A stretch of DNA of 64,000 nt from NCBI GenBank assembly GCA_037129835.1, contig JBAXUE010000003.1, forward strand, positions 18,793 to 82,792, given 5' to 3'. The number at the start of each line of letters is the position of its first letter. The first letter of the stretch is position 1. This DNA is from a bacterium. GTDB taxonomy: Bacteria; Patescibacteriota; CPR2; UBA1875; CAIMLA01. Shown here piece after piece: positions 11,046 to 61,385 of this stretch. The notes beneath the pieces are model-generated. The model worked only from the letters and a program-made list of their open reading frames with translations. It had not been told where the DNA came from and did no database searches. Position numbers and translations under genes: made by a program.

Positions 11046-11049
11046 GGGC

Positions 11050-20601: not shown

Positions 20602-20632
20602 AATTTCTCCTATTCTAGAGGGCCGAAAATAT

Positions 20633-23036: not shown

Positions 23037-23285
23037 TTGTGGATAAGTATGTTTATAACTAGTTATTATCCTATTTCTTCCTTGTTTAGAAAACAAAGTT
23101 AAAAAATGGGCAAGAAAAGTTATCAGCATTGTTACCAATAGTTATACCTAGGGTTGTACGGTTTTAAAAACACATAAAATAAAGTAAAATTAAGATTAAA
23201 AAAGGTCTTTTAACAAACATACACAGGGTTTATTACTAAGATTATTAATATATATTATAAATAATTAGACAAATAAGGGGATAAG
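23037..23285. promoter_or_regulatory. dnaA-dnaN intergenic oriC candidate: perfect DnaA box plus AT-rich unwinding-like stretch
   Basis: tgtggataa at about 23038-23046 is the reverse of TTATCCACA; degenerate TTATCCTAT nearby; very AT-rich stretch ttattaatatatattataaataatt just upstream of dnaN. Confidence 0.6.
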
Positions 23286-24383: not shown

Positions 24384-24388
24384 TATTT

Positions 24389-27639: not shown

Positions 27640-27648
27640 TCGACCTCC

Positions 27649-28966: not shown

Positions 28967-28999
28967 AGTTGCCCCCTTATTTTTTTAGATAAGACCCAT

Positions 29000-32047: not shown

Positions 32048-32251
32048 TTTTCCTCCCCAAGTATCACTCAAATAACATTATATATGGATACAAGTCAAAA
32101 TAATACTATTGAGCATGTGTTAATGTTTGTCCTTTGGCGAAATGGTTTCCTCGATTCTTGCTGGGCTATACGACTGATAATGTTTAGATAATGATGCGTT
32201 GAAGCATAAAAGGAGGCTGTTTTTAAATTAAGGCCCCCGCTACTCGGTTGT

Positions 32252-32776
32252 TTAGCCGGCCTTGCCTCCAGTGTTTGCGGTCATATCAAAATAAACGGTT
32301 TCGAGATTAGTTTTGTTTATTATTGAGTTATTAATATAATCCTTAGCTTCGTTCTTATATTTTTCGAAAGGCAGCTGATAAACAGTAATGTTGCAGATGT
32401 TACCACTTTCCATTTCTGTGCAATCTACGCTGTATTCCGACCCAATATAAGGGAGAAGATAGCTCTTTTTTAACTCATAAGTCTTGTTTCGGGTTTTGTT
32501 GGTCACTTCCAGTGTCGAAATCTCTGTCAGATAATCGTCTTTAGATATTTCGATTTTATATTTACCGGTCTTTAGTTCTATGGTTATCGGTGAGTTTCCG
32601 ACCACGGCACCATCGATTTTTATCTTTGCTGACCCAGGCACTGTGTTTATTGTTATTTTAGGTTTTCCGCTAAGCGCACTTGCAACCAGGGTAAGGACCA
32701 ATATTACTAGAAACAGAATTATAATTGCTATAATTATTTTAGTTTTTGTTTCTAGGTTAGAAATTATGGTGTACAT
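32252..32776 (-). CDS. Membrane-anchored PEGA-domain protein
   Basis: N-terminal TM then TINTVPGSAKIKIDGAVVGNSPITIELKTGKYKIEISKDDYL, a close match to the PEGA pattern. Confidence 0.45.
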   Translation of the reverse strand: MYTIISNLETKTKIIIAIIILFLVILVLTLVASALSGKPKITINTVPGSAKIKIDGAVVGNSPITIELKTGKYKIEISKDDYLTEISTLEVTNKTRNKTYELKKSYLLPYIGSEYSVDCTEMESGNICNITVYQLPFEKYKNEAKDYINNSIINKTNLETVYFDMTANTGGKAG

Positions 32777-36516: not shown

Positions 36517-37174
36517 CTGGTGTTTCTCCTACAAACTCTTTTGTTACTACGGATCTTTCTAAGGAAGACGCATCTGACATATAGCCAAACTTATCAATAC
36601 CTGGGTTGTATGAAATGTAATAGAGCTCTATTAGCCCTTGAGTATCAAGGGGGATACAGTTGATACCAATATTTTTTAAACCCATTTCTACGACAGAAGT
36701 TCTTTGATTAAGGGTGTTTATAGCCTTGTCGGTAGTTTTTGATATTAACTCCGTGTTCGGCTGCTCTTTTTGGCCAGCAATATATGGGAAGTATGGTACA
36801 ACGATGTAAAACTTTTTATCCATTAGGTTCGCTCTTTTTGTAATTTCTTCTAAGAAATTATGATAATCCTGAACGTGCTGAGCGGTGTAGTCGTCGGTGG
36901 CTTTTTTTGCGATATCTGAAATATTTTTTAAGTACTTTGCGAGATTAACCCTTCTAGATTGAACAAGAATTTGCATTGGAAAATCTACGGCATTGATCAG
37001 GTCCTGGAATGCCATTATTAGGCTTTCTTGCTCCCCCTCTGATCGGAGAGCGAAATTCAAGCTAGAAGACATGACAACTTTTCTCATTGACTTGTCTTTT
37101 AAATACACCACACCGTCGTGTATTTTATCTATTTCTAAAAAGCTTTGGGTGCTCGGTGCTTTTGGTTTAGCCAT
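36500..37174 (-). CDS. Candidate detached N-terminal domain of VirB4 (224 aa), overlapping the ATPase ORF by 17 nt in another frame
   Basis: 224 + 591 aa = 815 aa, a typical full VirB4 length; no TM; position directly upstream of virB4. Could be a real split, a frameshift or a sequencing error. Confidence 0.3.
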   Translation of the reverse strand: MAKPKAPSTQSFLEIDKIHDGVVYLKDKSMRKVVMSSSLNFALRSEGEQESLIMAFQDLINAVDFPMQILVQSRRVNLAKYLKNISDIAKKATDDYTAQHVQDYHNFLEEITKRANLMDKKFYIVVPYFPYIAGQKEQPNTELISKTTDKAINTLNQRTSVVEMGLKNIGINCIPLDTQGLIELYYISYNPGIDKFGYMSDASSLERSVVTKEFVGETPDVSRE

Positions 37175-37875
37175 TACTTTTTACCTCCAGGAGACTCTAG
37201 GTCTGCAAATTTATAGGCAGAGAGGTCTGGCAGATTACTGTTTTGACCCTTATTGGGATTTACTGTGGCAACTTGTGAAATAGCCGGTTCTCTGTTTTTT
37301 GCTACATTTTCGGCGGCATCATTCAGTGCCTGCGTTATCTCTTTGTTTCTGCTCGGAGTTTCGTTCAGTGCTATTTCTGCCGAAATATAGTCATCTGTCA
37401 TTTCTTCAATCCCACCGTCCAGAAGCGCCGCCATTTTTTTTATATGCGACAGCTCTTGGCGAACGCCTTTTTTGTTTTCAATGCCCGAGTCGAATGGTTG
37501 TCCAGTATCAGACTTACTCTTCAGTGTGACCTTTTCTGTTAATTTATTTAATGAGTCAAGTGCCCCGCCAGCATCTAGAGATTCTTTTGCCCATAATCGC
37601 AACTTTTCACCAGTATAGTACTGGTATAAAGGGAAGATATAATAATCAAGCGGCCTAGAATTGTATGGCACAAAGGCGAGCGAAAAAAATAGGGCTACAG
37701 GGAAAATAGCGGCGAGAACACCAACAAATATCGGTAGTTTGGCAGCGGTGAATAGCGTGTAAAATCCGAAGCCAAAACCAATCCCTGCAAGCATAAAGCC
37801 AAATTGTTTTAGGGTTAGCGGACCAAGGACTTGATCTGCAACCTCCACATCTTGTGGAACGTTATAGTAATTCAT
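37174..37875 (-). CDS. VirB3/PrgI-like small inner-membrane T4SS component with C-terminal soluble extension
   Basis: Two adjacent TM helices near the N-terminus (LTLKQFGFMLAGIGFGFGFYTLFTAAKLPIFVGVLAAIFPVALFFSLAFVPY) immediately upstream of VirB4, as for VirB3/PrgI/TcpE. Confidence 0.3.
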   Translation of the reverse strand: MNYYNVPQDVEVADQVLGPLTLKQFGFMLAGIGFGFGFYTLFTAAKLPIFVGVLAAIFPVALFFSLAFVPYNSRPLDYYIFPLYQYYTGEKLRLWAKESLDAGGALDSLNKLTEKVTLKSKSDTGQPFDSGIENKKGVRQELSHIKKMAALLDGGIEEMTDDYISAEIALNETPSRNKEITQALNDAAENVAKNREPAISQVATVNPNKGQNSNLPDLSAYKFADLESPGGKK

Positions 37876-37911
37876 TTATCTTCCTATATACCATTTAATG
37901 CTTCTTTACAC

Positions 37912-40329
37912 TTATAAATCATCAATTTGCTTGTTTATTGCAGTTGCCTTATCTTGTTCTTCCACTGTTGCGTGTGCTGGCCCCGCAGCCCTTGTTTCGT
38001 CAATGGTCGCTCTTTTCTCAGCTTCTTCGAACTTTGCCTGTTTGGCTGCTGCAGCCTTTTCTGTTGCGGTTGCCGCCGCCGCCGCATGTGCCGCCGCCGC
38101 TGCTGTTGCTGCCTTTGCGGCATCAATTTGTGCCCTGTTAATAGGCTCTGCTTCTTCTTGTGCCTTAGAAACTTCTTCTATCATCGCTTCTGTTTGGGCT
38201 GCGCTCTTGCTCTTTTCTCTTTTAGCTGATTTTTCAAAGGCGCCAAGAACCTTCTTGCTATCGGCAGTTACCTTGCCGGATCGATCCATGTGTGTAGAAG
38301 CGGCCGCAACTCTAGTATTGATTGTTTCTGTTTGTTCTTGACTAAATTGGCTGAAGTCGGTTACCTGGCTGAAGTCAACTAGGGCCATATGCTCTGGGTT
38401 GATTTTGCCGGTGTTGTCTGTAAATGTCTTTGAAGCATCGAAAATAATATTGTCTGCTTCTGCTCCGGTTTGCAGATCCCCTGGGTTGCTTGCTCGTAAT
38501 TTTTCTGCTCGTCTCTTCTCTGCGGCAAAGTTTTTACCCATGTTTCCAGCCAAAAGATCTTTGTAGTCTTTTCCGTTTGCTCTGATGACCGCAGAGGTTA
38601 CTCTGCTATCGCCCATGTCGCTAGCCTTTCTTTGTAGCCGTCCATTTTTAGCAGTCCATCTGCTTACCTTGCTTCTCTCTTCATCGGTAAGTACTGGGCC
38701 ACCATGATGTGAATTTTCCTCTTTTATGAACAGCTCTTGCATGTCCTTTGTTTTAAAGTCTTTGTAATATTCATCCTTTATTGGCACATCTGTTATTACG
38801 CCGTGTCTATCATATTCATATCCAGCCTCGGTTTCTTTCCCCATATGTGCAAACGCTTGATCACCTTTAAACTTGTAGTCACCATCTTTGTCTGTCAGTA
38901 CTCTGAGCCTCTCTCTGCCCATTGGATCAAAACTAGCTTCTTTGGTAACAAGTTCTTCGTCTCCGGCTTGTCTTTTCTCGGCGTCACCGTCATTAACTCC
39001 CAGAACTATCGCCGAAGCCTTACCAAGAATTCTTTTGCCAAAGTTATCAGAGTTGGCAGCCGCCTCTCCCCCAAGTCCACTATGGACTCTTTCATTCCAA
39101 GGTATACCGCTTTTATTCATAGCTTTTGACCCTTCCTTCATTACCATTCCGCCCAATGACTTTGCCTTGTTTGTTACCATGCCTTGCCCAGCCTTACCTA
39201 TGGCAGCAGCAGCCCCTCCGAGAAATTTGAGAGGTAAAAATATAGCGGCTATGGTAGCAACCAGGCCTGCAAAAAGAAGGTAATATGAAACCGGGTCAAA
39301 AATTTCTATAATAGATTTCGGTGCCCCGCCAGCCATAACATCAATTCCACCCCCCATTCCAAAGCTCTTGGAATTATCTGTTGCCCATGGATATTTTCCG
39401 CCAGTCACAATCTCATCTTGTATAAATTGTTTCCCTTTTTGTGACACCAGGGTCTTAGCAGTCCCCACAAGGCTAGTTTTAGAAGCGCCAAATGTAATCA
39501 ATTGGCCAACAAATAGGACTAATACAAATATTGGTAGGAAAAAGACCCACTTCGTAAATTCCTTCCACCAAGTGCTATATACGCTTTTTGTCCAAGGCAA
39601 CACGTTACAAGCAAAGGCCAGGGGCGCCAGGATGATGCACAGCATCACTACTACCGCCCTGAAAGCAAGCATGGCGCAAGCGCAAATCATAATCAGTAAG
39701 GCTATTATAGCGACAAATATTGAAAGGAAAGCGACCACCACGTTACTCCCTGTACCAATTCCTGAATATGTGGCCATTAGCACTTCAGTCATACTTTGAG
39801 TGCCGATTATTTGATTAACCATAACGCTTGCAAGGTCGTAAATCACAGCAGCAAGAGGACGACTAATAATCATCATAAAGATTGTCAGGGCAAGCTTGGG
39901 AACCATCGCCGAAAGTGTCCATTCCTTTAAGCCAACATTAAAGGTGGTTGCAAAGATGGCGACTAGCAGTGTGACTCCAAAAATAGAATAAGCTATAGTG
40001 TCGGTTGATACTACTAGTTGTTGATACATTGTGTTGGTTGGGTCGGTGCCTACGGTAATTACCATTTTAGACATGAACATAGCGAGGGATAACAGAACAA
40101 AGCCGAAGCCGTAAATCGCTTGAGCAATAGAGGTGAACATGGCGGTAAAAAAGTCGACGATCCAGTCAAGGGGATTTAGAGAGAATCTAGCAGCATAGGA
40201 AAGGCTTGGTGCTAGTAGCACGGTTGCTGCTCCTGCATATACATAGCCACGTTTATAAAATAAGCTTTTTATTTTTGCCCTTGTACGGGACACACTTTGA
40301 GCGATACCCATATAATCCCCCCCAAACAA
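37912..40329 (-). CDS. VirB6/TrbL/PrgH-like polytopic T4SS channel protein with long charged, Ala-rich C-terminal tail
   Basis: 805 aa; about 8 TM helices in the first ~400 aa, then a hydrophilic domain ending in AAKAATAAAAAHAAAAATATEKAAAAKQ; upstream of the VirB3-like and VirB4 genes. Confidence 0.4.
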   Translation of the reverse strand: MFGGDYMGIAQSVSRTRAKIKSLFYKRGYVYAGAATVLLAPSLSYAARFSLNPLDWIVDFFTAMFTSIAQAIYGFGFVLLSLAMFMSKMVITVGTDPTNTMYQQLVVSTDTIAYSIFGVTLLVAIFATTFNVGLKEWTLSAMVPKLALTIFMMIISRPLAAVIYDLASVMVNQIIGTQSMTEVLMATYSGIGTGSNVVVAFLSIFVAIIALLIMICACAMLAFRAVVVMLCIILAPLAFACNVLPWTKSVYSTWWKEFTKWVFFLPIFVLVLFVGQLITFGASKTSLVGTAKTLVSQKGKQFIQDEIVTGGKYPWATDNSKSFGMGGGIDVMAGGAPKSIIEIFDPVSYYLLFAGLVATIAAIFLPLKFLGGAAAAIGKAGQGMVTNKAKSLGGMVMKEGSKAMNKSGIPWNERVHSGLGGEAAANSDNFGKRILGKASAIVLGVNDGDAEKRQAGDEELVTKEASFDPMGRERLRVLTDKDGDYKFKGDQAFAHMGKETEAGYEYDRHGVITDVPIKDEYYKDFKTKDMQELFIKEENSHHGGPVLTDEERSKVSRWTAKNGRLQRKASDMGDSRVTSAVIRANGKDYKDLLAGNMGKNFAAEKRRAEKLRASNPGDLQTGAEADNIIFDASKTFTDNTGKINPEHMALVDFSQVTDFSQFSQEQTETINTRVAAASTHMDRSGKVTADSKKVLGAFEKSAKREKSKSAAQTEAMIEEVSKAQEEAEPINRAQIDAAKAATAAAAAHAAAAATATEKAAAAKQAKFEEAEKRATIDETRAAGPAHATVEEQDKATAINKQIDDL

Positions 40330-40440
40330 TTAATAATCATTAACAATAGTTTAAAACATATTACACTTTCAAGCAATAAAAAAGATGCTTCATGTGGAAG
40401 CATCTTGCGAAGTAATCTTTCGAACCCCTGGTTTGTTTCT

Positions 40441-40797
40441 TTAAAATCGCCCGATGATAAAACCAATAAGACTTACTAGTAGATAAGAGCCAGCAACGAT
40501 AGCTATACCGATAAGGCCAGAGGTAAGTATCTTTTTTGCGGTTGTTGACCTTGTTGGGTCTCCAGCAGAAAGCATGTACATTATACCGCCATAAATAAGG
40601 ACCAGTACGGCAATAGTAAATGTAACCCCCCATACTATGTCATAGATGCTAGTAAGAAAGTGTTGTAGCGTACTGCTACCAAACTGTGTGGTTACTACTG
40701 AAATAGCTTTCGCCATGGTTGTCATTGGTAAAAACAGAGCCGTTATTCCGAGGCCAAGCCCAAAACCGTTTATCATTTTTTGTTTATTCATATCCAC
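40441..40797 (-). CDS. VirB2/TrbC-like pilin-type protein 1 (signal peptide + two hydrophobic helices around a short polar loop)
   Basis: 118 aa; ...VLVLIYGGIMYMLSAGDPTRSTTAKKILTSGLIGIAIVAGSYLLV; paralogous to the next two ORFs. Confidence 0.45.
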   Translation of the reverse strand: MDMNKQKMINGFGLGLGITALFLPMTTMAKAISVVTTQFGSSTLQHFLTSIYDIVWGVTFTIAVLVLIYGGIMYMLSAGDPTRSTTAKKILTSGLIGIAIVAGSYLLVSLIGFIIGRF

Positions 40798-40849
40798 TCC
40801 TTATTATAAAAATATTTTAACATGTGCAGACCCATAGTCAACATCTTTT

Positions 40850-41248
40850 TTATGTAAACAGCGTTGCGAGATACCCAGCGAAGCTCACTAATAGTTTAGA
40901 TCCAGCGATAACAGCAATAGCTATAAAGATATATGTGAGATATTTTTTGGCCGTTGTCGCTCTGTTTGCGTCACCCGCCGAGGTCATATACATAATTCCC
41001 GCCATCACTACCGCCAGCGTGGCTGCAGTAAGAGTGACTCCAAGAAAAATATCAAAAATGTTACTCGTTATGCATGTGACCATTTCTACTCCAGAAATAC
41101 CAGGAGTAGATAGTTCGGTGCAACCCTTATAGAAGGGATTGGAAGAACCGGGGTCTCTGGCAGTCTTGTATGCGTGAGCAATTGTGCCCAACGGAAATAT
41201 TGAAAGAAAGACGGCTATAACAATAAGTAAATTGATTCGTCTTTTCAT
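40850..41248 (-). CDS. VirB2/TrbC-like pilin-type protein 2
   Basis: ...LAVVMAGIMYMTSAGDANRATTAKKYLTYIFIAIAVIAGSKLLV aligns with protein 1; start probably at the internal MKRRINLL (track start 41284 overlaps the upstream gene by 40 nt). Confidence 0.45.
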   Translation of the reverse strand: MKRRINLLIVIAVFLSIFPLGTIAHAYKTARDPGSSNPFYKGCTELSTPGISGVEMVTCITSNIFDIFLGVTLTAATLAVVMAGIMYMTSAGDANRATTAKKYLTYIFIAIAVIAGSKLLVSFAGYLATLFT

Positions 41249-41655
41249 TTGAAGTTGATGCCCATAAAAGAGAGGATAATCCAAAATGCTGACATCGCGA
41301 ATGCCCCCGTAAACGCTGCAATTATCATTTTTTTACCCTGCTCATACCTTGCGGCGTTACCAATGGAGACGAACATTGTGACCCCACCCAATATCATCAT
41401 TACAAGCGACAGGGTATATAAGATTGGGGCGGCATGACCGGCCATTTTACCAAGAGCTTGTGGCGCGTTGTCTGTATCATCAAATAAGCCGTGATTTAAT
41501 AGACTTCCAGCTAATATATTCGCGGGATAAGTAATAATAAAAGAAAATATTAAGGCATAAACAACATATGATTTTTTTTGCAATTGTTTAAATAGTTTTG
41601 TAATGGTGTGCACAGTCGAAACCCCCCTTGATATAAAAAGATTACACAACACCAT
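41245..41655 (-). CDS. VirB2/TrbC-like pilin-type protein 3 (more divergent)
   Basis: 136 aa; ...LVMMILGGVTMFVSIGNAARYEQGKKMIIAAFTGAFAMSAFWIILSF has the same topology; first gene of the minus-strand array, AT-rich promoter region upstream. Confidence 0.4.
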   Translation of the reverse strand: MVLCNLFISRGVSTVHTITKLFKQLQKKSYVVYALIFSFIITYPANILAGSLLNHGLFDDTDNAPQALGKMAGHAAPILYTLSLVMMILGGVTMFVSIGNAARYEQGKKMIIAAFTGAFAMSAFWIILSFMGINFK

Positions 41656-46872: not shown

Positions 46873-47454
46873 TTAGTATTTTTCTGATAAAATTTGGTAA
46901 AAAGCTTGTGGATGATCACAAACAGGGCAAATTTTTGGTGGTTCCGTACCTTCATGTACGTAGCCGCATTCACGACAAGTCCACCAAGTTTTTTCACCTC
47001 TTTTGAAGGCAATATCTTGTTCCAGGACGTTTAAAAGCTGGGTGTATCTGTGAAAATGATGATCCTCTGCTTCACCAATATCCGTTAGGCGTGCAGCAAT
47101 CTTGTCTAGCCCCTCTTCTTTGGCGGTTTTTGCAAAGTCAGGGTACATAGTGGACTTTTCGAAATCTTCACCGGCTATAGCTGCTTTTAAGTTTTCCTTA
47201 GTTGTATCCCAAACATTAGGTACTTCTGCATCAATCTTGATTGCTGGATAACTAACGTCGTTTTTTTTGAGTTCTTGGATGTGTTTCATTAGCATCTTGG
47301 CATGCGTTTTTTCTTGGTTGGCAGTTTCTTCAAATACGCCGGCAATTTGTTCGTAACCCTCATCTCTTGCCACCTTTGCGTAGATAGTATATCTATTTCT
47401 TGCTTGGCTTTCACCGGCAAAAGCTTTCGCTAGGTTTTCAATTGTCTTTTCCAT
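46873..47454 (-). CDS. rbr: Rubrerythrin (di-iron ferritin-like domain + C-terminal rubredoxin-like Cys4)
   Basis: EKTHAKMLMKH / EDHHFHRY di-iron ligand motifs, C-terminal CRECGYVHEG...CPVCDHP. Confidence 0.8.
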   Translation of the reverse strand: MEKTIENLAKAFAGESQARNRYTIYAKVARDEGYEQIAGVFEETANQEKTHAKMLMKHIQELKKNDVSYPAIKIDAEVPNVWDTTKENLKAAIAGEDFEKSTMYPDFAKTAKEEGLDKIAARLTDIGEAEDHHFHRYTQLLNVLEQDIAFKRGEKTWWTCRECGYVHEGTEPPKICPVCDHPQAFYQILSEKY

Positions 47455-47553: not shown

Positions 47554-47724
47554 ATGGATAATAAAGAAAAAGCAGAGAAAATAGAAGAACTGTATCAGAG
47601 GTCTTTAGATGAATTAACCATACTTAACAAAAAGCAAATGCAGATTATAAGGGATTTTCATAAAAAACTTGAAGAAATAAAGATAAAAGAAATCCAAAAT
47701 AAACTGGGGAAAAACGATGAGTAG
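47554..47724 (+). CDS. Small 56-aa coiled-coil ORF translationally coupled (GATGAGTAG overlap) to the HD-domain gene; possibly leaderless
   Basis: MDNKEKAEKIEELYQRSLDELTILNKKQMQIIRDFHKKLEEIKIKEIQNKLGKNDE; TTGTAT-N16-TATAAT with the -10 ending 6 nt before the ATG; not in the ORF track (<60 aa). Confidence 0.25.
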   Translation: MDNKEKAEKIEELYQRSLDELTILNKKQMQIIRDFHKKLEEIKIKEIQNKLGKNDE

Positions 47725-50056
47725 TTCTTCAGAAACCTTGGCTCCGCCACAGCCAGAGACTCAAAAAACGCCTGATAGCTTGGCAGAGCAAGGTGAGATG
47801 CCTATTACCGACGAACAACTAAAGGCTATTGTCGAAGGGGACTCCGAAAGTTTAACAAGGGGCGCTAGTGCTGTAAAAAAGCTTTCCGAAGGTGTTTTAA
47901 GAGCAGGTTCTGATTATGGCACGACAACCGAAGAAGCAGTCAGAGTGGCAACGGAAACGGGCGCAACAGAAGAACTTGCCACCAATGACGCATTAGCCGA
48001 ACAAGTTGTAGAGGACTTTGGACGAGGTTCCGCGGCCATTGTAGCGGAAGGAACTGCAGCTCCGGTAGTGGATATCGCGGAGTCGCCAGACTCACCAGCC
48101 TCTTCCCCGATATGGGTTGTTACTAGCGGCGAAGTTAACCCTATGGATATAGCTCGCCAAGCGAGTGAGGTAGTGCCCGAAGCTCAATCCGAAGCTATTG
48201 CGCAAGACACAACCGAAGCCGGTACTGAAATACGGGGAACCGTGGAAAAAGAACAAAGTCTTTCCGTGACAGAGAGAGCGGGAGAGATGCTCCGTGCCTA
48301 CTCGGAAGTACGTGGGAAAATAATACTAGAGCAAAAACTGGCACGTGAATCAGAAAAATTACAGAGACCTTTGACACCCGTAGAAACTGACGAAATAACC
48401 AAAGAGGTTTCTGCAAGAATTAGAAAAACAACAGAATATTTTGAATCAGTTGATAAAGAAAGAAGCCCAGAGACTCCGCTTGCGAGGGTTGCATCCATCT
48501 ACGAGGGGCTTGGAGATGTCGATAAAGATGCCTTGGAGGCACACATGAAGCTAGTAATAGAGTTAGCCTTTAATCAACAAATCGACAACCCAGAGCAGTA
48601 TTGTTCTCATGGTTTTGACCACACTTTAAGCGTTGCTGAATACACCAAACAGGTAGCCGAAAATAATTCAGAAATAATCAGTAAAGTACAAGCTCAATAC
48701 GGTATTACTGAGGCGGAAGCGATGTTTCTTCTAGAAACTGTTGCGCTTTTTCACGATTTTGGTTATCCGACAATTGGCCAAAGAAGTAAGGCTGCCCATG
48801 GTATTACTGGAGCAGAAATAATTTCTCAAGACCAATCACTCGCGCCGTTATTGGGGTCAGGAGATAGGGTGGGCCTGGTCGGTGTTGATCCTGATAAAAG
48901 GGATGCCCTTGCCCATGATTTGAGGGATGCAGTACTTTTGCATTCGGCTGATAAGGTAGAAAGTCATTTCTCGGTCAAGGTTGTATCTAGAAAGGGCACA
49001 TTTTTAACAAGTGCAGGTAATGTAGATGAGGTTGTCTCCACTTTTACATCCCCAGACACCGAAACGGGGGCTCCGTCAGAAGAATCAACCGAGATTTATG
49101 TAGCTAGAGGTAGTGATATGGACGTATTGGATGGCATCAGAATCGCTCGTGAACAGTCAGAGGACCCAGGTAAACCAATTGAAGTCATAGTGGTTGATAA
49201 TGGGCTTGAAGTGGGTAAATGGCGTTATGGTGATTCGGAGGGCGAGCCAAGCCTAATAACTGTACATGTCACTGACGAAGGATTTGAAGGTAGGTCAGCT
49301 GACTTGCACGAGAATAAGGACAAAATGATCGGTCTTGAATATTCAGAAGTAGATATTGAGGATGAGCCACTCCAAGGTGTTATTCGTGTAGCTGATAATA
49401 TGGACATGAGAAGAGTGCGTCTATCTGAGACTCAGTTAGACCCAGCCTTTCAAGAAATATATGAAGCATTTGGTGATATGGGGGACCATTCTATGGCCCT
49501 CGCCAGTTTTGAAAAACTAGAAGATGACTGGCAAAAATTATCTGATGAACAAAGCGGAAAAAAGGATGAAATTAAGACCCGGGTCCAAGAAACCTTATTA
49601 AAATTGGAGTTCTCTGAAGAACAAATTATCGCGGTATTAACGGCGGAAGATTTCCCTAGATCTGCTACTGAAATGCTAAAAGAGCAAATTATCCAAAGTA
49701 TCCTTAGCCAAGATAGGTATAGCGGTTATGAACAACCCCAACGAGATGCTATCGAAGAGATATCCATGTCTCAAAATTCAGAAGCGATGCGTCACTTTGA
49801 TGGCTGTATGGCTATTGAGGGGGTAGAGTTATCCGGATCGATGCTGACTGTTACTGTCGACAGAAAAGCGTTTGAACGCTTAAACAAATTTGGTGCTGAT
49901 GAAAAAGCAGCGGGTATAATACCCATAGGGGCATACCAGATATGGAGAGCCATACAGGCCTACGGTAGTCTCACGGTGGGGAAACAGCTTATTAACGTCA
50001 GGGTTGTGGATCAAGAGGGGGAAGAGATTGAATTACCGTTTACGACCAAGGCCTAA
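47717..50056 (+). CDS. Large (779 aa) highly acidic protein with central HD-type phosphohydrolase domain
   Basis: HGFDHTLSVAEYTKQ...LLETVALFHDFGYPTIGQRSKAAHGITGAEI (H...HD...H); long Glu/Asp-rich N- and C-terminal regions; no TM. Confidence 0.45.
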   Translation: MSSSSETLAPPQPETQKTPDSLAEQGEMPITDEQLKAIVEGDSESLTRGASAVKKLSEGVLRAGSDYGTTTEEAVRVATETGATEELATNDALAEQVVEDFGRGSAAIVAEGTAAPVVDIAESPDSPASSPIWVVTSGEVNPMDIARQASEVVPEAQSEAIAQDTTEAGTEIRGTVEKEQSLSVTERAGEMLRAYSEVRGKIILEQKLARESEKLQRPLTPVETDEITKEVSARIRKTTEYFESVDKERSPETPLARVASIYEGLGDVDKDALEAHMKLVIELAFNQQIDNPEQYCSHGFDHTLSVAEYTKQVAENNSEIISKVQAQYGITEAEAMFLLETVALFHDFGYPTIGQRSKAAHGITGAEIISQDQSLAPLLGSGDRVGLVGVDPDKRDALAHDLRDAVLLHSADKVESHFSVKVVSRKGTFLTSAGNVDEVVSTFTSPDTETGAPSEESTEIYVARGSDMDVLDGIRIAREQSEDPGKPIEVIVVDNGLEVGKWRYGDSEGEPSLITVHVTDEGFEGRSADLHENKDKMIGLEYSEVDIEDEPLQGVIRVADNMDMRRVRLSETQLDPAFQEIYEAFGDMGDHSMALASFEKLEDDWQKLSDEQSGKKDEIKTRVQETLLKLEFSEEQIIAVLTAEDFPRSATEMLKEQIIQSILSQDRYSGYEQPQRDAIEEISMSQNSEAMRHFDGCMAIEGVELSGSMLTVTVDRKAFERLNKFGADEKAAGIIPIGAYQIWRAIQAYGSLTVGKQLINVRVVDQEGEEIELPFTTKA

Positions 50057-50086
50057 TTTAATAAATATTATTAGAAAGGAAAAACT

Positions 50087-50857
50087 ATGAGAATGCCAGA
50101 AAATTCTAATGGTAATATAGAGCGTCTTAAAGAAGAAGCATTAAATAAATGGAATTTATCATATTCAGGAATACTTGAGGCGCGAATACAAGAATTTGTT
50201 AAACAAGAAAACAAGATGGTTAAGGTTGTGGATAAATTGCAACCGACCGAAACATTTATTGTCGGTGATGAAAAGGCAACATTGAATCACCGGTTACTTG
50301 GGGGTGGTGTTGGAGACATCGGGGGCACTATCGAAAATAGCATAGAAGCAGATCATTATCGTAAGTATGCTTGGTGGCGCAATGCTTTTGACCAGGGAGG
50401 ATTGGAATACAAAATGTCTGAGCTTTCCGTTATCTCTTTGGCGAAAGAGGCTGGGGTAGAAGATTCAGATATATTTCGAGCATCAACTGTTTTATCAAAA
50501 TATCGTTTTGAATTAGGCGAAAAAACCACCCATGAAATGAGCGAGTGGGTAATGGAGGAAATATTTAAGATATTAGCACCAAAACTTCTACCAGACTACA
50601 GACCCATGATAGCTGATTCTGCTCTCAGAATCATACCACTTACAAAGGAAGCACAAGAGGCTAGGACCGAAGATAATTCCGCATGGGAGAGATCCTTGCA
50701 AACAATTCGTGAAGCATCTGTTCAGTTGGATCAAATTTTTCGAGATGAGTCGCTACGTTCCCGTCAAGCAATAGGGAGTGAAGAACCCACCCTTACTAGT
50801 CAATTAATACAACAGAATACAGACATACAACCCGAGAACGCCAACCCTGACTGGTAG
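50087..50857 (+). CDS. Hypothetical soluble protein (256 aa), co-oriented with the HD-domain gene
   Basis: AAAGGAAAAA before the ATG; no recognisable motifs. Confidence 0.4.
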   Translation: MRMPENSNGNIERLKEEALNKWNLSYSGILEARIQEFVKQENKMVKVVDKLQPTETFIVGDEKATLNHRLLGGGVGDIGGTIENSIEADHYRKYAWWRNAFDQGGLEYKMSELSVISLAKEAGVEDSDIFRASTVLSKYRFELGEKTTHEMSEWVMEEIFKILAPKLLPDYRPMIADSALRIIPLTKEAQEARTEDNSAWERSLQTIREASVQLDQIFRDESLRSRQAIGSEEPTLTSQLIQQNTDIQPENANPDW

Positions 50858-50904: not shown

Positions 50905-51672
50905 TTATCTGAGAGTTCCGCTAAATACTTGCCATGCGAGAAGGGCCTTAGCGACTAAAGAAAAAGTTATATAAGCATATTCGCCATATATATAATCTTT
51001 CCATTTTCCGACCTTTTTGTACTGAAGAATCATATTAATCGAGAAAACATTGAAGGCGATAAATAGACTCCAGAAAATGGCGTAAACAAAGTCTGGCACT
51101 GCGCTTCCTCCTGCTGCTAAAGCATTGTAAAAATATAGTCCCATTACTACCCAGGGCATTGAGCCGGCAAAACAACCGAATAAGTACGCAGTCCAGTCCA
51201 CCTTCTTTGTTGTTTGGTTTTGAATCTCCATCATCCAACCGAATAAAATCATGCATGCGTTTAATGAAAAGATCAAAATAAGTGTCGATAAATCATAAAT
51301 ACCACAGAGGATAGCAATAACAACTACCATCATTGAAGAAGTGATAGAATATTCAGCCCATCTAAAAAGATTCATTCCTTTTTGAATTTGTTCTTCGTAC
51401 TTTTTACGCCAAACGAAAGCCGAGCCAAGCAAAAATAGCCCAGACAATAGCAAGAACGAAGCTACTATCGGTCCTAGCTGCCACTGAGCAAAGGCAACTC
51501 CATAAGCTGGGGTTGGCATACCGGGAATATTTCCTTGCTTACCTAAGTAACTAGTAGTGATCTGCGCGAAGGCATCTTTATTTGATATTGTCCACATCAC
51601 AACACCTTGCGCGAAAAGTATAATACCGACAATAGCATTATATATTCTGAGATTTTTTAGTCTTTTTTCCAT
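50905..51672 (-). CDS. Heliorhodopsin (7-TM retinal protein, inverted topology)
   Basis: NLFRWAEYSITSSMMVVVIAILCGI, ACMILFGWMME, FGCFAGSMPWVVMGLYF and C-terminal ...KWKDYIYGEYAYITFSLVAKALLAWQVFSGTL match the conserved heliorhodopsin blocks (counterion Glu in RWxEYS, Schiff-base Lys in SLVAK); 255 aa, 7 helices. Confidence 0.75.
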   Translation of the reverse strand: MEKRLKNLRIYNAIVGIILFAQGVVMWTISNKDAFAQITTSYLGKQGNIPGMPTPAYGVAFAQWQLGPIVASFLLLSGLFLLGSAFVWRKKYEEQIQKGMNLFRWAEYSITSSMMVVVIAILCGIYDLSTLILIFSLNACMILFGWMMEIQNQTTKKVDWTAYLFGCFAGSMPWVVMGLYFYNALAAGGSAVPDFVYAIFWSLFIAFNVFSINMILQYKKVGKWKDYIYGEYAYITFSLVAKALLAWQVFSGTLR

Positions 51673-51916
51673 ATTTACCCCTTTCTATGAAGATGGTACA
51701 CCTTATTATCTAAATAAAAAAGGCCACTACTTGGTCATTAATTTTAGCGATCTTTATCTTCAATATATTTTTAACATTTTTTCCCGTTAAACTCAGCTTT
51801 TGGCTCTGTTCAGAGCAATGTGTCCATTCGACTATGCTCAGGGAATTCTGGCTTGTAATCTTTTGCCCTTCGACTCGCTTACTCGCTCAGGGCATAAATC
51901 TCCTTTATGAGATTTA

Positions 51917-52006
51917 TGGCGGAAGGGGTGGGATTCGAACCCACGATACCATTGCTGGTATGACGGTTTTCAAGACCGTTCGATTCAACCGCTCTCGCAC
52001 CCTTCC
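51917..52006 (-). tRNA. tRNA-Ser (anticodon TGA), type II
   Basis: Reverse complement GGAAGGGTGCGAGAGCGGTTGAATCGA-ACGGT-CTTGAAA-ACCGT-CATACCAGCAATGGTATC-GTGGGTTCGAATCCCAC-CCCTTCC-G-CCA; anticodon loop CUUGAAA. Confidence 0.8.
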
Positions 52007-52233
52007 GTGCGGCAGGATAACCTGCTCTAAACCTCTTAATATACGATGCCGGGCACCTCCTTTGATGGACCCCTATAACACTCCGAAACCGGACCATCTG
52101 GTCCCATTCCTCTGCCATAACAATTGTATCCAAAAAAATAAAAATAAATAATGACCCCGGCTGTTACGGCTGCAATTACAGCTAGCAAAGATAAGCACAT
52201 TTTCCTTGAAATCATTGAGTTGCTTCCTTATAT

Positions 52234-52326
52234 TGGCGGAGAGGGAGGGATTCGAACCCTCGCGCCAGGTTACCCCGACCTACAGGTTTAGCAAACCCGC
52301 CCCTTCAGCCTCTTGGGTACCTCTCC
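52234..52326 (-). tRNA. tRNA-Ser (anticodon GCT), type II
   Basis: Reverse complement GGAGAGGTACCCAAGAGGCTGAAGGGG-CGGGT-TTGCTAA-ACCTG-TAGGTCGGGGTAACCTGGCGC-GAGGGTTCGAATCCCTC-CCTCTCC-G-CCA; anticodon GCU, A37. Confidence 0.8.
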
Positions 52327-52401: not shown

Positions 52402-53337
52402 GTGAAAATCTGTATAGCAGGCTATATTTCTTATATGACTTTAGATAAAGAAATACAAAATAAGAAGACAAAATATATTATTTTGGCATTTTCAGTGTTG
52501 ATTTTAGGAACCATACTAATCGTTGGATTAAAGTTATTAACAGTACAATTAGCAAAAGAATACCTACGCAAAGCAGAAAACACTACTACTAATACTGATA
52601 GACTAAAGTACTCGGAGACCTCGGCAGCGCTAAACGAAACCGAGGCGGCAATAGTTTTGGCAGGGGAATCGGCCTATGCCTTAAAAGACTATCAGCTAGC
52701 AATTCAGTATTATACAAGGCTTAATAACAATGTCGGTAAATTAGGCTCTGCAGAAGCATATTATCAGCTAGGTAGGTACGATAGCGCGAAAGAATTATTT
52801 CATGATTATAGTATTACGGACCTGACGGACTCGGAATATGAGCTATTAATTAAAACAGATCTAAGTCGAGGTGATATTAATTCAGTAAGAAAAGAGTTGG
52901 CGGGTTTCAAAACCGATGATCCATCTCGGGGTTTCTTAAATAATACTTATTGTCGAATAGACTACAGAGAAAATCCGGAGTGTTCTGCGATATACGTCTT
53001 AGACAAAATTAATCTAACAGAAACTGATAAGACTTACCTGTTGTCTACGGCATATAATTACTTTAATACGCAGAGTTTTCCACAAACAGCGTTAGCCTTA
53101 CTTAGAGAGGGGCGTGAAAAAGACCTTATTACGCGAGATGGCCTAAATTCGCTTGCAAATACGGATGAAACAAATGGAAATTTGAATTTAGCCTACAAAG
53201 AATTGGTTGAATCTCTAGCAAAAGATCAATATTATCCACAAACTTATCAACAGCTTATTTCTGTCGCAGAAAAACTCGGAGATAAGACTGCGGTATCAGA
53301 ATACCAAACTATACTAACAGGACTATATATTACGTAG
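52402..53337 (+). CDS. Hypothetical N-terminally anchored protein with TPR-like helical repeats (GTG start)
   Basis: 311 aa; TM ILAFSVLILGTILIVGL; AEAYYQLGRYDSAKELF-type repeats. Confidence 0.35.
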   Translation: MKICIAGYISYMTLDKEIQNKKTKYIILAFSVLILGTILIVGLKLLTVQLAKEYLRKAENTTTNTDRLKYSETSAALNETEAAIVLAGESAYALKDYQLAIQYYTRLNNNVGKLGSAEAYYQLGRYDSAKELFHDYSITDLTDSEYELLIKTDLSRGDINSVRKELAGFKTDDPSRGFLNNTYCRIDYRENPECSAIYVLDKINLTETDKTYLLSTAYNYFNTQSFPQTALALLREGREKDLITRDGLNSLANTDETNGNLNLAYKELVESLAKDQYYPQTYQQLISVAEKLGDKTAVSEYQTILTGLYIT

Positions 53338-53438: not shown

Positions 53439-55553
53439 TTACTTAGGCCACAAGCTAATTATTAGAGGTTTTTCTTCTTTTAGCTCTTCCCAAATAGTTT
53501 CTGTTAAAAATGGCATAAATGGATGGAGCATTCTTAGCGAATTCCTTAGTACATAGTCGAGCGTGTGTTGCGCTGCAACTTTGCTTTTGTCGTTATCTTG
53601 AATTCTGGTTTTTGCGTTTTCTATATATATGTCACAGAAATCATGCCAAAAAAAGGAATATACCGATTCTGCTGCAATACTTAGTTTGTAGCCCTCAATT
53701 GCTTTCGTTACGACTTTTAAGGTAGATTCGTATTTAATTAAGATATCTTTATCAGCTTGGGTTAATTCTTTTTCAATTGTTTCACGTGAAACAATTTTAT
53801 AATCTTCTAGGTTCATTAAGACAAAACGTGCTGCATTCCAAACTTTATTTGCGAAATGCTTCTGTCCCTTGATGTTTTCCTCAGAAACAGCTACGTCGTT
53901 CTCAATTAAGGCGCCCCAAACCAAGCTCATTCGGAGTGCGTCGGAGCCATATTTATCCACCATCTCTACTGGATCAATCACGTTACCTTTGGATTTACTA
54001 ATCTTTAAGCCTTGTTTATCACGAACAAGTCCATGTAAAACCACATTTTCGAAAGGAGTTTCACCTGTTTCGTAAATTCCGAGCATCATCATGCGGATTA
54101 CCCAGAATGGTAATATGTCGGCAGCGGTTTCCATTACAGTAGTAGGGTAAAAATAGTCGAAATCTTCTTTGCTGTTTACTTCTAGGGCAGCGAAAGGCCA
54201 TTGGCCAGATGAAAACCAAGTATCGAAGGTATCTTTATCCTGGGTGAGCTTGGACGAACCACAATGAGTACAGGTAGGAGGTACTTCCCCTGCAGTGATT
54301 GTCCACTTATTACAACCAGCACAATGCCAAGCAGGAATTCTTATTCCCCATACTATCTGCCGGCTGATGTTCCAGTCACGTAGATTTGTAAGCCAGTGCA
54401 TCGCAGTCTTTTCGAATTTTCTGGCGTTAAAGGTCGTTTGTTTGTTTTCTATCGCAGAGAGTGCAGATTCGGCTAGTTTTTCTACCTTAATAAACCACTG
54501 ATCTTCTAATAAGGGTTCTATAACGGTATTACAACGATAGCACTTACCAACGGAATGGTGCAAATCTTCTGTTTTTGTTAATAATTTGGCTTCCTCGAGC
54601 CTTTTTATTGTTAGCTCTCTAGCTGCTTTCGGCCGCAGTCCCACGTATTCTTCTGGAACATTCTGCATTTTTCCTTCTTTGCTGATGATAGAAATAAGCG
54701 GAAGGTTGTGTTTCTGTCCTATTTCATAATCTGTAGCATCGTGGGCAGGAGTAACCTTGAGCGCGCCCGTACCGAACCCTATTTCTACAAGCTCATCAGC
54801 TATTATTGGCACTTCCCTTCCTATGAGTGGAATAGTAGCGATCTTGCCAACTAGGCTTCCCAGTTTTTTGTCTTTTGGGTTCACCGCTACTGCGACATCG
54901 GCAAATATGGTTTCTGGTCTAGTGGTTGCAATAGTCACGGTACCATAATCTAGGTAGTATAGTTTGTCGTCTTGTTCTTTGTAATCAACCTCAAGTTGAG
55001 AAAAGGCAGTTCCACAGCGGACACAGTAGTTCACTACTCTCTCGCCTCGATATATTAAGTCGTCCTTGAAAAGCTTATTAAACGTTCGATAGACTACTTT
55101 GACAATCGCTGGATCTAGGGTGTATTTACCTCTGGACCAGTCACAAGAGGCACCGAGTGCTCTAAGTTGATTCTCCATATTATTACGGTTATCCACAACA
55201 TAATCCCATATCATTTGGTATAGTGTATCGCGATCATAGTCGAACCTGCTTTTGCCTTCTTTGGCCAATTTTTTCTCAAATACGTATTGCGTTTCTATGC
55301 CTGCATGATCTGCCCCGGGGACCCATAAAGTAGGGCGTCCCTTCATTCTCCAGTAGCGAGTGAGGATATCTTCTACGAATACGAAGCGAGCATGACCGAT
55401 GTGCAGATTGTCATTCGCATTTGGTGGAGGCATTATTATAGTAAAGGGCTTTTCACCTTTTTTGATTATTGGCTTAAAGTAGCCATTATCTTCCCAAAAT
55501 TTGTATATTCTTTTTTCGTTTTCGGCCGGGCTGTATGCTTTTGCCATTTCCAT
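53439..55553 (-). CDS. valS: Valyl-tRNA synthetase (compact form)
   Basis: HIGH as PPPNANDNLHIGHA, KMSKS as KISKSKGNVIDP, ISRQIVWGIRIPAW motif typical of ValRS; 704 aa; preceded by a T-box-like leader. Confidence 0.65.
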   Translation of the reverse strand: MEMAKAYSPAENEKRIYKFWEDNGYFKPIIKKGEKPFTIIMPPPNANDNLHIGHARFVFVEDILTRYWRMKGRPTLWVPGADHAGIETQYVFEKKLAKEGKSRFDYDRDTLYQMIWDYVVDNRNNMENQLRALGASCDWSRGKYTLDPAIVKVVYRTFNKLFKDDLIYRGERVVNYCVRCGTAFSQLEVDYKEQDDKLYYLDYGTVTIATTRPETIFADVAVAVNPKDKKLGSLVGKIATIPLIGREVPIIADELVEIGFGTGALKVTPAHDATDYEIGQKHNLPLISIISKEGKMQNVPEEYVGLRPKAARELTIKRLEEAKLLTKTEDLHHSVGKCYRCNTVIEPLLEDQWFIKVEKLAESALSAIENKQTTFNARKFEKTAMHWLTNLRDWNISRQIVWGIRIPAWHCAGCNKWTITAGEVPPTCTHCGSSKLTQDKDTFDTWFSSGQWPFAALEVNSKEDFDYFYPTTVMETAADILPFWVIRMMMLGIYETGETPFENVVLHGLVRDKQGLKISKSKGNVIDPVEMVDKYGSDALRMSLVWGALIENDVAVSEENIKGQKHFANKVWNAARFVLMNLEDYKIVSRETIEKELTQADKDILIKYESTLKVVTKAIEGYKLSIAAESVYSFFWHDFCDIYIENAKTRIQDNDKSKVAAQHTLDYVLRNSLRMLHPFMPFLTETIWEELKEEKPLIISLWPK

Positions 55554-59615: not shown

Positions 59616-59768
59616 TTTACTTTTTATAGTATATCTCATACTGGGTTGCTTATTTATTTCCTTAATTAATTATCTGAAACTAGCATTTGTTCTCGTCACC
59701 CTTGACAAAGGAGCTATAAAGCGTTATTATGTGTGGTCAAATTAAATTCAGAAAAACCAGGAGCAAGC

Positions 59769-61385
59769 ATGGAATTGTCCCCAAAACAACAAATAGCAGA
59801 ACTGATAAAGAGTAATCAGCGAATTTTGATAGTTGGCCACAAAAACTCGGGTGGTGATCTTATCGGTTCTATGCTGGCGCTCGAACGAGTGCTTGTTTCT
59901 CAAGGCAAGGAAGTTTCTTTGGTATTGTCAGAAGGCGTTGAGACGGCTCACCTGTTCCTACCTGGTGTTGAGAAGATCGGTCGTGAACTATCAGGCCAAA
60001 GAGATCTTATCGTTAGGATTGATAAAAACGCAAACAAAATTGAAAAAATCGCTTATAACGAAGAAAATGGATTTCTTAATATTGTTATCACACCTAGTGG
60101 TAAAGCAATTGCGAAATCAAATTTGAATATAGTAGATGGTAATTACAAATACGACCTTATTTTCGTGTTAGACACACAGGATGTAGAAAAAATTGACCCC
60201 GTTTATGATAAATATACGGAACTATTTTTCGAAGTACCGATAATCAATATCGATCATCATGCAGGAAACGAGCATTTTGGAACCGTTAACTTGGTCGATA
60301 TGACAGCGACCTCTACGGCAGAAATTTTAGTATCTATTATTGAGGCAATCGGGCCAGGGAACTTTGATGCTGATGTGGCGACTTGTTTACTTACTGGGCT
60401 TATCGCCGATACGGCTAGCTTTAAAAATACTAATACTACGCCAAAATCATTAACAATATCAGCACAGATGTTGGCAGCTGGGGCGAGACAGCAAGAGATT
60501 ATTCAAAATTTATATAAGGCTAGACCGATTCAAACGTTGAAACTTTGGGGCAAGCTGCTATCAGGTCTTGAATATGACGCAGAACATCGAATCGTCTATA
60601 CGGTTGTGAATAAAGAAGATCTGAGCACAGCAAAAGCCTCTATCGAAGATGTTCAAATTGTACTGGATGAGCTCCTTAGCAGCACTCCAGGAACTGATAT
60701 CGTACTAGTACTAGTCGAGAACAACGCCAATATTACTGGTTTGTTGCGCGGTTTAAATGGTCAAGACGTACTATCTTTAGCAGAAGGCTTTGGCGGTAAT
60801 GGTAAGGCTCTAGAGGCAAGCTTCGAAGTCCAAAATGCAACAATAGCCAATAATAAAGAACAAATCATAACAAAAATAATGAATTTCAGAGATGCTCAGC
60901 TAGGTAAGCCCCAAAATCAGCCCATCTCAGTAATGGTAGAGAAGGCTGAACCCCCAAAGGTAGCTGTAGAAGAAGTCAAAATAACTGAGATTAAAGTTAT
61001 TGACAATGGAACTCAGCAAGAAGACGTAAACGAGCTTATCTCGATAGAGAAAACAATCGATAATACGCCAGAGGAAATCGCTGGCGATAACGGTTTTTCG
61101 TTAGAGGAAATATTTACCCCAACACCTGAGTACGCACCAGTAGAGGAAGATGTTGTCCTCGAAGTCTCTGACGATTCCATAGAAAAGGCTCTGGAATCTA
61201 TCGATCTAGAGATAGAGGGAGCACCCGTCCCGATACTGGATTCTCCTAATATCGATATAGAAGAAGTAAAAACAAAAAGTGAAACATTACAAAAAATCGG
61301 AGAAGTTATGAGGGGTTATAAGCCAGGAACTTCTGAGCCAGAAAACGGAAATCAACCTATAGATTCTACGATTTGGAAGAAATAA
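59769..61385 (+). CDS. DHH-family phosphoesterase (NrnA-like oligoribonuclease/pAp phosphatase) with long acidic C-terminal extension
   Basis: Start at MELSPKQ with AGGAG upstream; GHKNSGGD, NIDHHAGNEHFG (DHH), C-terminal ~170 aa Glu/Asp-rich. Confidence 0.6.
   Translation: MELSPKQQIAELIKSNQRILIVGHKNSGGDLIGSMLALERVLVSQGKEVSLVLSEGVETAHLFLPGVEKIGRELSGQRDLIVRIDKNANKIEKIAYNEENGFLNIVITPSGKAIAKSNLNIVDGNYKYDLIFVLDTQDVEKIDPVYDKYTELFFEVPIINIDHHAGNEHFGTVNLVDMTATSTAEILVSIIEAIGPGNFDADVATCLLTGLIADTASFKNTNTTPKSLTISAQMLAAGARQQEIIQNLYKARPIQTLKLWGKLLSGLEYDAEHRIVYTVVNKEDLSTAKASIEDVQIVLDELLSSTPGTDIVLVLVENNANITGLLRGLNGQDVLSLAEGFGGNGKALEASFEVQNATIANNKEQIITKIMNFRDAQLGKPQNQPISVMVEKAEPPKVAVEEVKITEIKVIDNGTQQEDVNELISIEKTIDNTPEEIAGDNGFSLEEIFTPTPEYAPVEEDVVLEVSDDSIEKALESIDLEIEGAPVPILDSPNIDIEEVKTKSETLQKIGEVMRGYKPGTSEPENGNQPIDSTIWKK

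Follow-up and report, generated by a model that had tools for sequence, protein, structure and literature searches.

The present study concerns a heliorhodopsin gene in a 64-kb stretch of bacterial DNA from contig JBAXUE010000003.1, referred to at its full length as the window. The coding sequence lies at 50905..51672 (-), starts with ATG, and encodes a protein of 255 aa with a pI of 9.3 and no histidine; it was analyzed with Pfam, NCBIfam, PDB sequence matches, an AlphaFold2 (AF2) model with Foldseek, and the ratio of nonsynonymous to synonymous substitution (dN/dS). The Pfam profile PF18761 matched the open reading frame (ORF) over 242/242 profile positions with an E-value of 1.2e-86 and 290.4 bits (cutoff 26.7), and the NCBIfam heliorhodopsin equivalog NF038020 matched it with 294.7 bits (cutoff 100). 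The best sequence matches among solved structures were TaHeR (6is6, E 7e-60) and 48C12 (6uh3/6su3, E ~2e-53). These matches bear out the heliorhodopsin call of the earlier note on this DNA, and the four sequence blocks on which that call had been based, RWAEYS, MILFGW, FGCFAGSMPW, and YAYITFSLVAKALLAWQVFSGTL, were all found in the translation of the ORF at 50905-51672 (-). An identical protein with identical neighbors is present in two other assemblies. With a match far beyond chance, it is near-certain that the ORF is a genuine, intact, full-length heliorhodopsin.

As Kyte-Doolittle segmentation left the seven helices not cleanly separated, an AF2 model built from 61 homologues was used instead (pLDDT 88, pTM 0.84). 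The predicted fold consists of transmembrane helix 1 (TM1, residues 2-29), a long beta-hairpin in extracellular loop 1 (ECL1; strands 35-46/53-65), and six further helices. The top 10 Foldseek hits of the model were all TaHeR or 48C12 chains (TM-score 0.81-0.88), with a score of 0.86-0.88 against TaHeR 6is6, and the best type-1 rhodopsin in the list ranked after the heliorhodopsins (E 1e-4, TM-score ~0.6). By a crude hydropathy split, lysine plus arginine counts were 3 at the N-terminus, 5 in the TM2-3 loop, 2 in the TM4-5 loop, and 4 in the TM6-7 loop, with 2 in ECL1 and 0 in segment 182-197, which the AF2 model places within helices. This charge pattern, a positive-inside count only, is consistent with the cytoplasmic N-terminus (N-in topology) of the family.

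The residues of the retinal pocket were compared by aligning 65 full-length heliorhodopsins from the collected loci (L numbers below) with 48C12 and TaHeR. The retinal Schiff-base lysine and the counterion glutamate, on whose presence and proper alignment the call could have failed, are both in place. K242 (codon 50947..50949 (-), in S238-L-V-A-K242) aligns with TaHeR K238 and 48C12 K241 and is kept in 119/120 related clusters, the remaining cluster having a gap at that column; the serine of the SxxxK motif, S238, aligns with 48C12 S237. E107 (codon 51352..51354 (-), in RWAEYS of TM3) aligns with TaHeR E108 and 48C12 E107 and is invariant in 120/120 clusters. The network residues whose roles have been described in 48C12 (PMC9726877, PMC6951262) are matched by N12, Q22, S77, Y92, R104, W105, E107, Y108, E149, F207, E231, S238, K242, and W247. 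The motif of the lateral fenestration, which opens beside the retinal ring, has been defined as an aromatic residue at 162 and 206, a small residue at 166 and 210, and glycine at 169 (bioRxiv 10.1101/2025.11.27.691015), and the window protein carries it, with Y163, C167, G170, F207, N208, and S211 at these positions.

The gene is also well preserved. Synonymous sites were saturated against most relatives (dN 0.09-0.27 against the more distant ones); therefore, only the comparison with locus L061 was informative, and it gave a dN/dS of 0.08 (dS 0.65). In comparison with L003, a syntenic relative, heliorhodopsin is the best conserved protein of its neighborhood: its identity is 85% against 47-81% for the neighbors, namely rubrerythrin 81%, Mur ligase 72%, FemAB 68%, TsaD 65%, DHH 61%, and the valyl-tRNA synthetase (ValRS) 47%. 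Heliorhodopsin is under strong purifying selection, and as judged from these sequence comparisons the gene appears clearly to be in use, although no retinal pathway is visible.

The main departure from the characterized proteins concerns histidine. In the whole window protein there is none, and the conserved histidine pair of TM1 and TM2 is replaced in the alignment by L19 (codon 51616..51618 (-); H23 in 48C12 and TaHeR) and by L81, which stands at the place of 48C12 H80 and TaHeR H82 (codon 51430..51432 (-)). The 12 sequences from the loci that are at least 63% identical all have leucine at H23, leucine at H80, and threonine at S111 (48C12 numbering). Among the 54 more distant heliorhodopsins, H80 is kept in 54/54 and position 23 is histidine (46) or phenylalanine (8). 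Extending the comparison to the 120 closest protein clusters (56-93% identity), leucine was found at H23 in 113/114 of those having the N-terminus and threonine at S111 in 119/120, and no histidine aligned to H80 in any of them. The histidine pair is not defining for heliorhodopsin; its loss marks a subfamily. The loss is fixed across a large clade whose taxon-labeled members are all Saccharibacteria or Patescibacteria, which is the new observation of this study.

Several findings in the literature bear on the expected effect of this loss. The TM1 and TM2 histidines are the proposed proton-accepting group, and H80F in 48C12 abolishes the O state (PMC9726877; Chazan et al.). In TaHeR H23F/H82F, M was still formed and accumulated less (PMC9726877; Chazan et al.); M also forms in histidine mutants (PMC9726877), and a heliorhodopsin with natural leucines at both positions makes pigment (bioRxiv 10.1101/2021.02.16.431466). 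That protein, HULAa30F3 of Chloroflexi, is the one characterized natural Leu/Leu heliorhodopsin, with low M, a long-lived O state, and absorption at 562 nm (bioRxiv 10.1101/2021.02.16.431466). Since HULAa30F3 also lacks the pair, the feature has a precedent. Because the clade has H23L, leucine or nothing at H80, and S111T, its photocycle should resemble those of HULAa30F3 and TaHeR H23F/H82F.

The nearest matches to the protein in genome collections (71-86% identity) are metagenome-assembled genomes (MAGs) labeled Candidatus Saccharibacteria or Patescibacteria group. By these labels, the host is a bacterium of the Saccharibacteria/Patescibacteria (candidate phyla radiation, CPR), probably monoderm in type, which agrees with the small-genome host proposed in the earlier note. 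FemAB, a Mur ligase, and a type IV secretion system (T4SS) cluster of the Gram-positive-like PrgI type lie in the window, and no outer-membrane marker was seen in the 64 kb. As a separate observation, some heliorhodopsin contigs carry diderm labels (L009 and L011, Muribaculaceae; L020, Fusobacteria; L055, Spirochaetales); the labels may result from erroneous binning or reveal true departures from the monoderm rule.

The retinal supply was considered by a Pfam scan of 65 ORFs, 63 of them at least 110 aa long; the seven ORFs of at least 110 aa outside the scan are each contained, on the other strand, in a longer ORF that was scanned. The scan found no beta-carotene dioxygenase (blh), phytoene synthase/desaturase, lycopene cyclase, or type-1 rhodopsin (Bac_rhodopsin) in the 64-kb window, so that the statement that no blh or crt genes are nearby holds for the window in its entirety. 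In rhodopsin-bearing Saccharibacteria, no blh was found and host-derived retinal has been proposed (Jaffe et al. 2022, PMC9296517). An exogenous source of retinal is accordingly a reasonable suggestion, with no pathway genes in view, and the idea is already published (PMC9296517; also for TaHeR).

Concerning the surroundings of the gene, a Shine-Dalgarno sequence, GAAAGGGG, lies 5 nt before the ATG at 51678-51685 (-), and a promoter-like site (TTAACG, 17 nt, TATATT) lies upstream at 51762..51790 (-), a consensus match only that is no evidence of function. Further upstream are two tRNA-Ser genes at 51917..52326 (-), recognized by ARAGORN and Rfam (tga 51917-52006; gct 52234-52326), and a divergent gene for a 311-aa protein at 52402..53337 (+) with TPR matches in Pfam, all below the curated cutoffs. 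This TPR-like protein is syntenic and fast-evolving, with 26-32% identity in L003, L004, and L007 and 82% in L061. Downstream on the same strand, the conserved neighbor is rubrerythrin at 46873..47454 (-), supported by an NCBIfam equivalog (241 bits) and a Pfam match; it is 76-81% identical and syntenic in L003, L004, and L007. The 47-bp gap between heliorhodopsin and the convergent 256-aa ORF described below contains no bidirectional terminator that we could find. In L003, a terminator-like hairpin with a T-run stands after the heliorhodopsin gene. We infer a transcription unit of its own from the promoter-like site and the Shine-Dalgarno sequence upstream, together with this hairpin; the hairpin also speaks against the possibility that heliorhodopsin and the redox genes that follow it in L003 form one operon, which was rejected.

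Between heliorhodopsin and rubrerythrin, the window carries two genes on the opposite strand. The first, at 47717..50056 (+), encodes a 779-aa acidic HD (HDIG-like) protein (HD779; pI 4.44, 19% D+E, Pfam HD E 2e-6), and the second, at 50087..50857 (+), encodes an acidic 256-aa protein and ends 47 bp from heliorhodopsin. The acidic HD protein described in the earlier note is thus present, but the gene directly convergent with heliorhodopsin is the 256-aa ORF, and HD779 lies upstream of it on the same strand. Both families are small, with 8 homologues of HD779 in 5.8e9 proteins and 54 representatives of the 256-aa family among 1.84e9 proteins. In the HD779 family, H298, H302, H346-D347, H361, H409, D412, and a C-terminal D-N-M-D-M motif are invariant; outside the HD domain the protein has no PDB sequence match, and the 256-aa ORF has no Pfam, NCBIfam, or PDB sequence match. 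A Lys/Glu-rich ORF of 56 aa at 47554-47724 (+) lies just upstream of HD779 and overlaps its start, and another assembly (L001) has it annotated as a gene. At the HD-cassette loci L129 and L131, ORFs of 83-88 aa with no obvious sequence similarity to it occupy the same position.

The distribution of the two genes was followed across the related loci. In L003, L004, and L007, whose heliorhodopsins are 80-86% identical to that of the window, the common order is DHH, Mur ligase, FemAB, TsaD, ValRS, TPR-like protein, heliorhodopsin, and rubrerythrin, and both cassette genes are missing at the syntenic locus. Their place is taken by a desulfoferrodoxin of 131-148 aa, that is, a superoxide reductase (SOR; PF01880 + PF06397), followed by the same rubrerythrin. 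The only other lineage with the cassette at the same position is L061, in which heliorhodopsin is 93%, the 256-aa protein 54%, and the HD protein 41% identical. At four other loci, a 222-227-aa homologue of the 256-aa ORF comes after the HD779 homologue in the same orientation, and no heliorhodopsin was found in the flanks covered, which reach 8 kb except where two contigs end 0.7-3.6 kb downstream. Likewise, the cassette was not found near heliorhodopsin in the other clade contexts that were compared (L005, L006, L062, L067, and L134-L137). The occurrences compared here (window 47717-50857 (+), L061, L128, L129, L131, and L132) are at unrelated sites in apparently small CPR-type genomes. By this comparison, HD779 and the 256-aa ORF are a rare, fast-evolving, mobile two-gene cassette and a lineage-specific insertion, with no conserved partnership with heliorhodopsin; the unrelated HD cassette has landed between heliorhodopsin and rubrerythrin in the lineage of the window.

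Redox-defense genes recur beside heliorhodopsins. In the Saccharibacteria relatives L003, L004, and L007, the SOR gene (2Fe-type desulfoferrodoxin; 10839-11267, 10850-11245, and 10823-11269, respectively) directly follows heliorhodopsin and precedes rubrerythrin by 10-16 bp. In L074, whose heliorhodopsin is 43% identical, an SOR gene also follows, ~130 bp downstream. The methionine sulfoxide reductase gene MsrB is immediately upstream of heliorhodopsin in L067, a member of the histidine-less clade, and in L013, L027/L081, and L032; it is beside heliorhodopsin in L120, and rubrerythrin is ~1.9 kb upstream in L100. Redox-defense genes are thus adjacent to heliorhodopsin in independent lineages. 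The main texts of two published heliorhodopsin-neighborhood studies do not mention rubrerythrin, superoxide reductase/desulfoferrodoxin, or methionine sulfoxide reductase. In the window, no SOR gene was found in the 64 kb, nor a remnant of one when it was sought by tblastn.

Taken as a whole, we consider with moderate confidence that the gene encodes a functional heliorhodopsin of Saccharibacteria, a stand-alone, non-pumping photosensor working on scavenged retinal and belonging to a histidine-less CPR subfamily. The protein would bind all-trans-retinal that the cell does not make, taken from the host or the surroundings through the lateral fenestration. It would pump no ions and would act as a slow-cycling light sensor that is transcribed alone, and its photocycle would be poor in the M intermediate, with an O state that is long-lived. 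The sensor mechanism and the exogenous retinal are suggested by analogy with characterized homologues and the literature. As for the output, a light-triggered defense against photo-oxidative stress, which is a published idea, would fit the recurrent adjacency of SOR, rubrerythrin, or MsrB; such a redox-defense output is speculative.

Several observations weigh against this reading of the gene as a stand-alone photosensor with a redox output. The pigment formation, the photocycle, and the lack of transport would follow from homologues only, and the absence of blh covers 64 kb, a fraction of the genome. In addition, L061 keeps the cassette beside heliorhodopsin, which may leave room for a local functional link. 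The redox association is interrupted by the terminator-like hairpin between heliorhodopsin and SOR-rubrerythrin in L003, and in the window by the missing SOR and by 3.2 kb of opposite-strand genes between heliorhodopsin and rubrerythrin. Many clade members are placed among housekeeping genes: some lie between FtsA-like and alanyl-tRNA synthetase genes (L135-L137; in L006 the contig holds the upstream side only), and others (L062, L134) adjoin SMC, with no redox gene nearby in either setting. Moreover, oxidative-stress genes also neighbor proton-pump rhodopsins (Chazan et al., bioRxiv 10.1101/2021.02.16.431466). The oxidative-stress link of heliorhodopsin is therefore weak.

Alternatively, the protein could bind and modulate a soluble enzyme or a transporter encoded elsewhere in the genome, which we regard as rather unlikely. 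Photolyase and an ABC transporter are among the reported partners of heliorhodopsins. Such action has been demonstrated experimentally for other heliorhodopsins, glutamine synthetase being modulated by AbHeR (PMC9529153), and the conserved, positively charged cytoplasmic loops of the window protein and its variable neighborhood would be compatible with a partner in trans. However, the Pfam scan of the window found neither glutamine synthetase nor photolyase, and both are likewise missing from the annotated genes beside the heliorhodopsins of the clade. L135 has an ABC ATPase fragment, but it is ~4.6 kb from heliorhodopsin, and the metabolism of Saccharibacteria is very reduced.

A role in light-dependent membrane-lipid remodeling together with DUF2177, DUF1295, and DegV proteins, as hypothesized by Chazan et al., is distinctly unlikely here. 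In the histidine-less clade, DUF2177 is immediately upstream of heliorhodopsin on the same strand in L005 (1017-2190) and in L134 (3789-5762), where the order DUF2177-DUF1295-heliorhodopsin runs on one strand, and it holds the same position in the distant, non-clade L076. These adjacencies match the DUF2177/DUF1295/DegV association reported previously (bioRxiv 10.1101/2021.02.16.431466), which agrees with such a role. On the other hand, the Pfam scan found no DUF2177, DUF1295, or DegV gene in the window, and the association is not universal.

We consider it very unlikely that the protein transports ions, with proton transport as in viral heliorhodopsins, or harvests light with exogenous xanthophylls in a two-antenna arrangement. 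The carotenoid-binding/fenestration motif is present, such a role has been proposed for most heliorhodopsins (preprint 10.1101/2025.11.27.691015), and CPR cells have few means to energize their membrane. Nevertheless, the characterized prokaryotic proteins 48C12 and TaHeR act neither as pumps nor as channels (PMC6951262), and the fenestration motif of the window protein is missing from the viral subfamily that transports (preprint 10.1101/2025.11.27.691015). Exchanging two polar histidines for leucine also renders the TM1/2/3/7 tunnel more rather than less hydrophobic.

The earlier note had offered the HD protein, and the DHH protein further on, as signaling partners. A light-signaling pair, in which heliorhodopsin controls the phosphohydrolase encoded with its 256-aa companion on the convergent strand, has in its favor the adjacency in the window and in the diverged lineage L061 and the invariant HD catalytic residues; it is nonetheless highly improbable and largely refuted by synteny, as the cassette is missing from the corresponding locus of L003, L004, and L007 and from the other clade contexts listed above, occurs at four loci without heliorhodopsin in the flanks covered, is convergent with heliorhodopsin so that co-transcription is impossible, and encodes proteins that diverge ~6-9 times faster in sequence than heliorhodopsin. 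The DHH protein (59733-61385) was rejected as well: it resembles a housekeeping NrnA-like enzyme, with only sub-threshold NCBIfam matches to NrnA-like nanoRNase models, and lies 8 kb away in the conserved Mur/FemAB/TsaD block.

The favored photosensor reading can be compared with known systems. With TaHeR (Thermoplasmatales archaeon SG8-52-1, 6is6) and 48C12 (6su3/6uh3), the window protein has 41-44% full-length identity and the same fold (model TM-score 0.82-0.88), as well as E107/K242/S238, the R104-E149-E231-Y92-N12 network, and the fenestration residues. TaHeR Y164 corresponds to Y163, and the Met/Met/Ala color-tuning triad is as in TaHeR. Unlike these two proteins, it has leucine or nothing at H23 and H80/H82, threonine at S111, and no histidine. 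HULAa30F3 (Chloroflexi/Dehalococcoidia), compared by description only, has both histidines replaced by leucine as here, and its low-M, long-O photocycle is what is predicted for the window protein; it differs in phylum and in having a DegV neighbor, and while it absorbs at 562 nm, the M148/M214/A241 triad of the window protein would suggest a shorter wavelength (PMC7807009). The SacR type-1 rhodopsins (Jaffe et al. 2022, PMC9296517) come from the same host phylum, likewise without blh and with the host-derived retinal hypothesis, and take up exogenous all-trans-retinal rapidly through a lateral hole (PMC9296517). In contrast to heliorhodopsin, SacR are type-1 outward proton pumps with a DTS motif and the opposite membrane topology, and none is present in the window.

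The following data from the literature set the novelty of the gene. Chiriac et al. 2022 screened 1326 CPR genomes and reported in their main text 80 Saccharimonadia heliorhodopsins, with SLVAK among the commonest lysine motifs (PMC9166423), and they suggested a role in mitigating oxidative stress (PMC9166423). Bulzu et al. 2021 argued that heliorhodopsins are monoderm-restricted sensory switches tied to oxidative stress (PMC8612252), and Chazan et al. described oxidative-stress, DegV, and DUF2177 genes as heliorhodopsin neighbors (bioRxiv 10.1101/2021.02.16.431466). As Saccharimonadia heliorhodopsins with SLVAK are already catalogued (PMC9166423), the window gene is a new member of a known group, and the novelty implied by the earlier note was overstated. 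With the same host group, the SLVAK motif, and the proposed oxidative-stress protection, the gene very likely belongs to the Saccharimonadia/CPR set of that study (PMC9166423), whose main text does not report the double-histidine loss or the SOR/rubrerythrin adjacency seen here. The presence of heliorhodopsins in Saccharimonadia, the scavenged retinal, and the oxidative-stress connection are thus all three already published.

The rest of the window was surveyed by the same Pfam scan and contains further aminoacyl-tRNA synthetases and cell-wall genes. ValRS at 53439-55553 (-), at 704 aa a short valyl-tRNA synthetase, shares only 47% identity with its syntenic counterparts in L003, L004, and L007. 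The adjoining genes TsaD, FemAB, Mur ligase, and DHH reach 61-72%, and the lower value suggests accelerated divergence or gene replacement. The genes dnaA, dnaN, and recF lie on the forward strand at 21525-25471 (+), while yidC and a Jag-like KH/R3H gene (20131-21487) point away from them immediately upstream, and from this arrangement the window spans the chromosomal replication origin region. The long same-strand cluster at 25753-41655 (-) is typical of a Gram-positive-type T4SS and includes genes for three T4SS-pilin paralogues, a PrgI-like protein, a VirB4/TraG-like ATPase, and NlpC/P60-VanY and glucosaminidase wall hydrolases. Several of its ORFs, 200-805 aa long, have no Pfam match. Two proteins with a terminal DUF5648 domain, encoded at 1995-3236 (-) and 13330-15285 (-), lie on either side of a rhamnose/glycan biosynthesis cluster; in one of the two, the domain is joined to a subtilase S8 protease.

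What heliorhodopsins do for the cell is still debated, and the minimal genomes of CPR bacteria are a good place to shorten the list of their possible partners. The locus raises no new question in this respect; the tempting HD-domain neighbor can be discarded as a partner, and SOR, rubrerythrin, and MsrB can join the list of recurrent redox neighbors of heliorhodopsins. The CPR clade amounts to a natural knockout of both histidines in the proposed proton-accepting group and is, therefore, an inexpensive system for testing their function. In a further and rather doubtful extension, the histidine-less heliorhodopsins (L19/L81/T111) might form a distinct functional subfamily with an M-poor photocycle that uses host-derived retinal and gates the photo-oxidative defense of episymbionts (SOR, rubrerythrin, MsrB). 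If this were true, pigment formation would itself signal host contact and light.

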